IMG/VR virus record: IMGVR_UViG_2526164650_000003
Reading direction: 5' to 3' (one strand)
DNA from: a virus
Taxonomy: Duplodnaviria > Heunggongvirae > Uroviricota > Caudoviricetes
DNA length: 22,610 nt
A program made the translations under genes and the position numbers. This document shows positions 15,098-15,230 of this stretch, in pieces; position 1 is the stretch's first letter; each line of letters starts with the position of its first letter. Below the pieces are notes generated by a model. The model was not told the origin of the DNA and did not search any database. It saw nothing but the letters and a program-made list of their open reading frames with translations.

Positions 15098-15230
15098 TTG
15101 ACAATAATTTTCATTTCCATTAAAAAAGATCGCGTAGCATTCTTAATTCATGAGGAACTTTACCCGCCAGCAATCTGAGTAGCGAAAGCTGTTCATCCCC
15201 AATGTTTTTGCTGGCGGGTCCTTTTTTCTA
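15098..15230 (+). ncRNA. Orphan promoter-terminator unit, candidate small RNA (about 90 nt)
   Basis: TTGACA (15098-15103), 17-nt spacer, then a TAAAAA -10-like hexamer. About 90 nt downstream, an 11-bp inverted repeat cccgccagcaa/ttgctggcggg with a long loop is followed by tcctttttt. No plausible ORF in between. Confidence 0.25.

Follow-up and report, generated by a model that had tools for sequence, protein, structure and literature searches.

A short unit on the plus strand of a defective lambdoid prophage, in which a promoter-like sequence runs through a hairpin into a run of Ts, is real, and roughly one in four complete E. coli genomes has a conserved copy of it. We read it as a stand-alone small RNA (sRNA) gene with a product of about 95 nt, an unrelated member of the kind represented by PasA and PasC and possibly iron-regulated, and, judging from sequence, we give this reading a probability of roughly 0.4. 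The window, i.e. the whole 22,610-nt stretch of DNA that was analysed, is a lambdoid E. coli or Shigella prophage that is defective and has its late operon on the minus strand. Read directly, its plus strand carries TTGACA-N17-TAAAAA, then the hairpin, then T6, and all three elements lie where the initial annotation of this DNA had placed them. The features of the region are listed below in order of position.

13540-14992, plus strand: ISEc20 (IS110-like), from the RefSeq annotation of 99% identical copies and from junction alignments
15027-15053, minus strand: late-strand terminator-like hairpin with T6, from the terminator scan, kept across variants
15098-15103, plus strand: -35 hexamer TTGACA, a 6/6 match to the consensus, read directly
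15099-15118, no strand assigned: Fur-box-like motif over the -35 hexamer and the spacer, a motif match
15104-15120, plus strand: 17-nt spacer between the hexamers
15121-15126, plus strand: -10-like hexamer TAAAAA, a 4/6 match without the T at position 6
15133-15161, plus strand: 5' part of the predicted transcript, unpaired in the centroid fold and predicted to be unstructured, a candidate pairing region
15151 (ATG) to 15181-15183 (TAG), plus strand: 10-codon ORF
15162-15219, plus strand: hairpin with a GC-rich 12-bp outer stem and an inner 8-bp stem, from fold and conservation
15222-15227, plus strand: T6 tract completing the intrinsic terminator, read directly, invariant among variants
15233-15254, plus strand: second, weaker terminator-like hairpin with a T-rich 3' side, from the terminator scan, 9 pairs
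15667-15976, minus strand: tRNA array of the late operon (Gly-TCC, Thr-TGT, Arg-TCT and a CAT-anticodon tRNA), from ARAGORN and Rfam
16153-16848: Q antiterminator gene (PF06323)

The exact pattern TTGACA-N17-TAAAAA has one match in the window and none in 100 shuffles of it. The unit exists in eight distinct versions, seven of which were aligned, and TTGACA is invariant in 7/7 of the aligned variants while its flanking bases vary. Tested against the sigma-70 pattern (hexamers 16-18 nt apart, A2 and T6 in the -10), the window copy has a 6/6 -35 hexamer, a 17-nt spacer and a -10 hexamer without T6; the missing final T is the reason why the site is absent from the sigma-70 scan list. The window type and the remaining variants read TAAAAA followed by A or G, and hence are all without this near-essential T. 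The commoner, AR_0086-type variant reads TTGACA-18-AAAAAT and is called by the same scan at 10/12, the best score in 3.5 kb (L002). These matches make a promoter plausible, and the window copy of it may be a weak allele. A SigmaE promoter was rejected by inspection, as the gap between GGAACTT (15154-15160) and TCTGA (15174-15178) is just 13 nt; the presence of GGAACTT solely in window-type variants was also counted against it.

The -35 hexamer is embedded in TGACAATAATTTTCA, which resembles a Fur box. The 7-1-7 motif TGATAATNATTATCA is matched with 2 mismatches (12/14) at 15099-15113, the sole match in 22.6 kb with 0.04 expected, and the 19-mer Fur consensus is matched at 14/19 positions at 15100-15118, the top score of the window. 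The corresponding site of the relatives reaches 16-17/19 against the 19-mer and has a single mismatch (13/14) to the 7-1-7 motif; the AR_0086 variant with this stronger Fur-like site reads TTGACAATAATTATCATTTTC. For calibration, the identical count was applied to a Fur site that gel shift and in vivo selection had confirmed, that upstream of nohA in prophage Qin (PMC2189734); it scores 15-16/19. The site over the -35 is a motif match that possibly reflects iron control, a stronger idea for the commoner variants than for the window copy. Since the Fur-box-like operator covers the -35, repression by Fe-Fur and release upon iron limitation would be expected, at least in the commoner variants. AR_0086 also has a second Fur-like site (L002 1230-1254; compared with L180 4589-4613), with 14/19 matches and 2 mismatches to the 7-1-7 motif, which precedes the small terminase gene and corresponds in relative position to the proven nohA site of K-12 Qin. 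Fur sites may recur in the late regions of these prophages.

Published iron-response data were searched for the same region. The supplements of a Fur ChIP-seq study of CFT073, a strain that may or may not carry the unit, contain none of the phage lysis-gene terms searched for (PMC7157518). On plasmid pS88, the hypothetical ORF pS88132, listed beside iss, was at 0.20-fold (p = 0.013) in iron-depleted LB, and its neighbours pS88130 and pS88131 were raised in urine (PMC3438092). The drop of pS88132 runs counter to induction by iron limitation, for an ORF that is not placed relative to the unit (L182 21683-22196, pS88).

Downstream of the promoter-like sequence, the predicted transcript extends from about 15133 to about 15228, i.e. 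about 95 nt. Its outer stem is formed by ACCCGCCAGCAA (15162-15173) pairing with TTGCTGGCGGGT (15208-15219) over 12 bp, 8 of which are G-C pairs, so that the hairpin of the initial annotation holds while its stem of 11 bp needs correcting. The distance given there, about 90 nt from promoter to hairpin, was loose: the hairpin starts 64 nt after TTGACA. The 34-nt interior of the outer stem contains the inner stem (15176-15183 with 15188-15195), which has 8 bp and is capped by GAAA. A loop of 34 nt, inner hairpin included, is unusually long for a terminator, and its excess over 8 nt is the sole reason why the terminator scan made no call here. Only CC separates the outer stem from T6, which agrees with the definition of an intrinsic terminator as a GC-rich stem with a U-tract within 0-2 nt. 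The RNA fold of 15128-15230 has an energy of -31.9 kcal/mol (z = -3.9 against dinucleotide shuffles), and 1 of 200 shuffles was as stable. The second hairpin, at 15233-15254, is poorly kept among the other variants.

A terminator of this kind could also serve without any gene of its own. According to this main rival, which we regard as somewhat unlikely, the hairpin and that at 15233-15254 insulate: plus-strand antisense transcription from the lysis/structural region (e.g. from the iss/bor side) would be stopped before the tRNA and Q module, and the promoter match would be due to chance in AT-rich DNA. The region is rich in terminator-like hairpins on both strands (12 versus 4.6 expected in 13000-17500, and 11 versus 3.4 in L002), iss and a 90-aa ORF lie upstream of the unit on the same strand in intact relatives, and the best-conserved part of the unit is the hairpin. 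The promoter side is where the rival meets difficulty. Most variants do lack the final T of the -10, which favours a chance match, but the -35 is perfect and stays invariant amid varying surroundings, the -10 of one variant group passes the sigma-70 scan, and the full pattern did not arise in any of the shuffles. Moreover, a Fur-like operator centred on the -35 would be hard to account for without a promoter, and the analogous PasA and PasC units are real RNAs.

The variants were then compared column by column. Variable columns amount to 1/40 among paired positions versus 12/46 among unpaired transcribed positions (Fisher p = 0.002; 7 variants), with 8/28 alignment columns variable in the 5' unstructured part. 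Across the seven variants, 139/140 pair cells of the stems are paired. No covariation was seen in the hairpin among them, and, because 19/20 base pairs never vary, conservation of the structure is not separable from plain conservation of the sequence. More divergent homologues were sought for covariation among species representatives and in IMG/VR, and none was found beyond the E. coli and Shigella variants. The variants agree at about 86% over the whole spacer of about 370 bp, so that no sharply bounded island of conservation marks the unit.

This even conservation bears on the idea that the unit is non-functional spacer DNA, whose apparent conservation comes from a young prophage lineage spread by recombination. 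We consider this unlikely. It would explain why only about eight sequence variants exist, all of them in E. coli and Shigella, why identity is similar across the whole spacer and why covariation is absent; it would not explain why substitutions avoid the stems or why the fold is significantly stable. Neither does it account for the coincidence, on a single strand and inside 130 nt, of a Fur-like motif, a terminator and a perfect -35 at the correct spacing.

Three features are specific to the plus strand. The first is the T-run 3' of the hairpin, which has no counterpart after the hairpin on the minus strand. The second is the inner stem, in which a G.U and a U.G pair are neighbours; it is predicted in the plus-strand fold and not in the minus-strand fold. 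The third is the stronger fold, with z = -3.9 on the plus strand versus z = -2.6 (-28.4 kcal/mol) on the minus strand. Two stem changes among the variants cancel and do not settle the functional strand: that in L181 turns A-U into G.U on the plus strand, and that in the ColV plasmid variant gives A.C on the plus strand and U.G on the minus strand.

The opposite strand nevertheless has a claim of its own, in which the hairpin would be a cis-acting structure in the leader of the late (minus-strand) mRNA, e.g. a processing or stability element ahead of the holin gene, and the plus-strand signals would be incidental. The late transcript must traverse the hairpin, the 12-bp outer stem forms on the minus strand too, and the stem change of the ColV variant keeps pairing on that strand only. 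However, the G.U and U.G pairs become mismatches there and the inner stem is lost from the prediction, and the invariant T-tract would be meaningless. The unit is also kept in inspected plasmids and remnants that have no holin or lysozyme gene left to regulate. We consider a late-leader structure quite improbable.

Between the end of the IS (~14992) and tRNA-Gly (15667) lies a spacer of about 675 bp without an annotated gene, close to the 700 bp of non-coding sequence that had been estimated for the gap between IS and tRNA array. In the intact relatives L001 and L002, the same spacer runs straight into a class II holin gene, followed by ydfR, lysozyme and Rz, and the homology between the window and intact relatives begins at 14993, seven bases upstream of the holin start codon. 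In L001, the holin gene occupies 5779-5994 (minus strand) and the unit ~6106-6235 (plus strand), i.e. the unit is immediately upstream of this class II holin gene and runs against the direction of the late operon. Its neighbours in the prophage lineage are the tRNA array, or a DNA methyltransferase gene, on one side and the holin gene on the other. The unit is thus native to the spacer before the holin gene, which bears out the suggestion that it is phage-associated.

The companion suggestion, that it belongs to the IS, does not hold. About 100 bp separate the unit from ISEc20, and the segment is 100% identical in intact prophages without the IS, which makes it a feature of the phage and not of the IS. 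An IS110 bridge RNA or another IS-borne RNA was likewise rejected, as the unit starts at 15098, past the ISEc20 end at ~14992, and is carried by relatives without the IS. The bridge RNA of an IS110-family element is expected in the non-coding stretch between the left end and the transposase start, and about 230 nt of ISEc20 (13540-13770) are non-coding in that position. The gene of the DNA packaging protein FI adjoins ISEc20 on the left; with the holin leader on the right, ISEc20 therefore stands in place of the lysis cassette, terminase, portal and head genes. A relic of the deleted lysis region, as had also been proposed, is right in that the unit is the surviving, intact upstream leader of the lost lysis cassette, and wrong in that it is not itself a degraded gene. 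In strain 95-3192 (L059 2501-3976), another ISEc20 is flanked by the small terminase gene and the prophage tRNAs. The right junctions of both ISEc20 copies, in the window and in 95-3192, have CCCCCCGA in common, which suggests sequence-directed insertion.

The late strand of the region has signals of its own. The hairpin at 15027-15053 is about 35 nt upstream of the position of the holin start codon in intact relatives, and it probably blocks polymerase unmodified by Q from entering the lysis cassette. A second late-strand terminator-like hairpin with a T-run lies in the spacer at 15389-15408 (minus strand). Downstream of Q, at ~16065-16170 (minus strand), a promoter-like TTGCAA-17-TATATC is followed by a terminator-like hairpin (16083..16071) and T7, which is likely the PR'-tR' short late leader (6S/StxS-type transcript) of the window prophage. 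The tRNA at 15901-15976 (minus strand) is Met (CAT) by ARAGORN, and the corresponding gene of L001 is tRNA-Ile in RefSeq; the latter reading implies a lysidine-modified CAT anticodon, like that of the ileZ-type tRNAs of Stx phages.

The 10-codon ORF, the only one reported between promoter and hairpin region in the initial annotation, was found; it has no Shine-Dalgarno sequence and most of its codons are changed by variant differences, and so is probably not coding. A RefSeq protein of 63 aa, WP_000502162.1, covers the homologous stretch in some genomes, including AR_0086, while in the window its frame is split into ORFs of 26 aa and 37 aa. Another minus-strand ORF, of 98 aa, is confined to one variant, and neither the 63-aa nor the 98-aa ORF has a match in Pfam. 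No ORF in the unit is conserved across variants. That the unit is a tiny protein gene, whether through the 10-codon ORF (15151-15183) or through one on the minus strand, like that of the 63-aa AR_0086 protein, is very unlikely in our judgement: the RefSeq entry speaks for it, as does the small-protein gene ynfU in the equivalent slot of Qin, yet the broken 63-aa frame, the missing Pfam match and the amino acid changes and absent Shine-Dalgarno sequence of the 10-codon ORF all oppose it.

The closest known counterparts of the unit, read as an sRNA gene, are PasA and PasC, Hfq-dependent sRNAs of EPEC E2348/69 that were validated by Northern blot and RIL-seq (Pearl Mizrahi et al. 2021, PMC8550237; Zhu, Shabalina & Storz 2026, bioRxiv 10.64898/2026.05.13.724894). 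Like the unit, they occupy the spacer that immediately precedes a class II holin gene in a lambdoid prophage, are oriented opposite to the late operon, and combine an upstream TTGACA, a length of about 80-95 nt, a 3' hairpin with GCCAGC in its 5' arm and a U-tract. At the PasA locus (L057), PasA lies at 3916-3999 (minus strand) and the holin gene at 4214-4420 (plus strand), and the hairpin reads GCCAGC...GCTGGC followed by U7; a late-strand terminator-like hairpin stands just before the holin gene position both there and in the window spacer. The same locus holds two tandem units, each with TTGACA, about 70 nt, a GCCAGC hairpin and a U-tract (L057 3766-3846 and 3916-3999, both minus strand), the second of which, resembling PasC, ends at the nanS-p stop codon.

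The two kinds differ in other respects. The upstream neighbour is nanS-p (an esterase gene) for PasA and PasC and the tRNA array for the unit, and the holin proteins at their loci differ in accession and length. Enrichment in EPEC and EHEC is seen for PasA and PasC, whereas the unit has S. flexneri, ExPEC and APEC strains and ColV-type plasmids among its named carriers. Unlike that of the unit, the upstream sequence of PasA and PasC has no resemblance to a Fur box on reading, without formal scoring. In local alignment, the similarity of PasA and PasC to the unit scored no better than that of shuffles. A covariance model built from 5 PasA/PasC-type sequences left the window copy unmatched at E up to 10. 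In relatives it gave non-significant matches of 18.3 bits (E 0.13; L002) and 15 bits (E 0.64; L004); both cover the predicted RNA exactly, and apart from the PasA/PasC loci no hits of the model score higher. Homology to PasA and PasC was therefore rejected, both alignment and covariance model falling short of significance. The stem core GCCAGC...GCTGGC is common in unrelated phage terminators.

Other systems were compared as well. RyhB shares with the unit a length of about 90 nt, a Fur box over the promoter, and an unstructured pairing region followed by an intrinsic terminator; it has no sequence similarity to the unit and is a core-genome gene rather than one of prophages and plasmids, and Fur control of the unit is a motif match only. 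The lambda-type phage RNAs oop, anti-Q PaQ and PR'-tR' 6S/StxS are likewise short transcripts of the Q-to-lysis region whose promoter is followed directly by an intrinsic terminator. However, oop and PaQ overlap cII and Q and not the holin leader, and 6S/StxS are on the late strand directly after Q, where the window has its own candidate (~16170-16065, minus strand). In nmpC/lc with IpeX (DLP12, PA-2) and ynfU (Qin), independently transcribed opposite-strand cargo is likewise found between Q and a class II holin gene, although the products are proteins or an RNA derived from a 3'UTR. Opposite-strand cargo recurs in this slot before the holin gene, as with ynfU in Qin and nmpC in DLP12; in K-12 Qin, ynfU (L180 8806-8976, plus strand) is a small zinc-binding-protein gene on the opposite strand upstream of essQ. 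The unit is not a scar of an nmpC/lc-IpeX insert, since it has no similarity to the nmpC-essD or quuD-nmpC spacers of DLP12, and the essQ-cspB spacer of Qin, which holds ynfU, has no similarity to the unit's spacer.

Database and literature searches gave no named family. A check against sRNA databases had been suggested; Rfam 15, with IpeX, AgvB, AsxR, Esr41, STnc100 and RyhB as far as they are included in it, returned four tRNAs only in the window at the gathering threshold, and at E up to 10 no family matched the unit and nothing credible appeared over 14950-15680. A full-text literature search for the stem sequence returned nothing relevant, and the promoter sequence is not present as text in the transcription-start supplements of S. 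flexneri M90T.

The distribution of the unit was determined with a 211-nt query around it in 5426 complete E. coli genomes. Conservation in related prophages, the other check suggested at the outset, was confirmed: the segment is present in 1427 of the 5426 genomes, at 915 chromosomal and 643 plasmid places, with an identity of at least 99% in 9 genomes and of 80-90% in the remainder. In a scan of species representatives, the unit was found in E. coli and S. flexneri only. Two scans of IMG/VR proviruses yielded 45 contigs with the same two main variant types and one single-base stem variant, and sequenced phage isolates (INPHARED) gave no match to the segment. Three plasmid copies were inspected. 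They adjoin iss and Rz remnants, not far from genes for salmochelin or colicin V, and have kept the unit while the holin and lysozyme genes are gone; the same holds for some chromosomal remnants. Strains with the unit include CFSAN029787, AR_0086, IHE3034 and S88, on whose plasmid pS88 (NC_011747.1) it falls around 111.7-112.2 kb. One IMG/VR contig (L016) has two identical copies of the segment (1-300 and 1281-1580), 1280 bp apart and flanking a holin gene, which is either a local duplication or an assembly artefact.

Taken as an sRNA gene, the unit draws support from the invariant -35, a correctly spaced A-rich -10, a terminator on the plus strand only, the absence of a conserved ORF and a slot like that of PasA and PasC, and its survival in remnants and plasmids that have lost the holin and lysozyme genes was also counted in favour. 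It would be a gene of an E. coli/Shigella lambdoid prophage lineage, set in the spacer that separates the tRNA array of the late operon from the class II holin gene, and its transcription would run against that of the late operon. RNA polymerase would start near 15133 and terminate at 15227-15229. The product would be an Hfq-type RNA with about 30 unpaired 5' nt followed by the terminator hairpin, and it would act by base pairing, either in trans on host or phage mRNAs or in cis on the late transcript. The predicted RNA would match the late transcript as its complement over the whole length, at 147-241 nt upstream of the holin start, and could therefore act in cis. When the translation-initiation regions of the phage were screened for trans targets, all duplex-energy z-scores were below 2 in size. 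The window copy would be stranded, its adjacent lysis cassette removed by ISEc20 and its -10 (TAAAAA) and Fur box weaker.

A more specific version holds that this is a Fur-repressed sRNA, carried on prophages and, beside iss, on ExPEC ColV-type plasmids, which upon iron starvation pairs with the late-operon leader or with host mRNAs. We regard it as distinctly doubtful. If it were true, pairing with the late leader would tie expression of the lysis cassette to the iron status of the host, and pairing with host mRNAs would give the iron-sparing response a mobile accessory arm in addition to RyhB.

Should the unit prove to be a terminator only, it would be ordinary punctuation of a phage genome. 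If it is transcribed, about a quarter of complete E. coli genomes would carry an unannotated regulatory RNA, found at 643 places on their plasmids, whose inspected plasmid copies adjoin the serum-resistance gene iss and salmochelin genes. This would lend support to the last spacer before the lambdoid holin gene as a preferred site for opposite-strand sRNAs, occupied by PasA, PasC and the present unit. With a mobile sRNA under Fur control, phage or plasmid functions would be coupled to iron limitation, which is the main signal from the host for extraintestinal E. coli.
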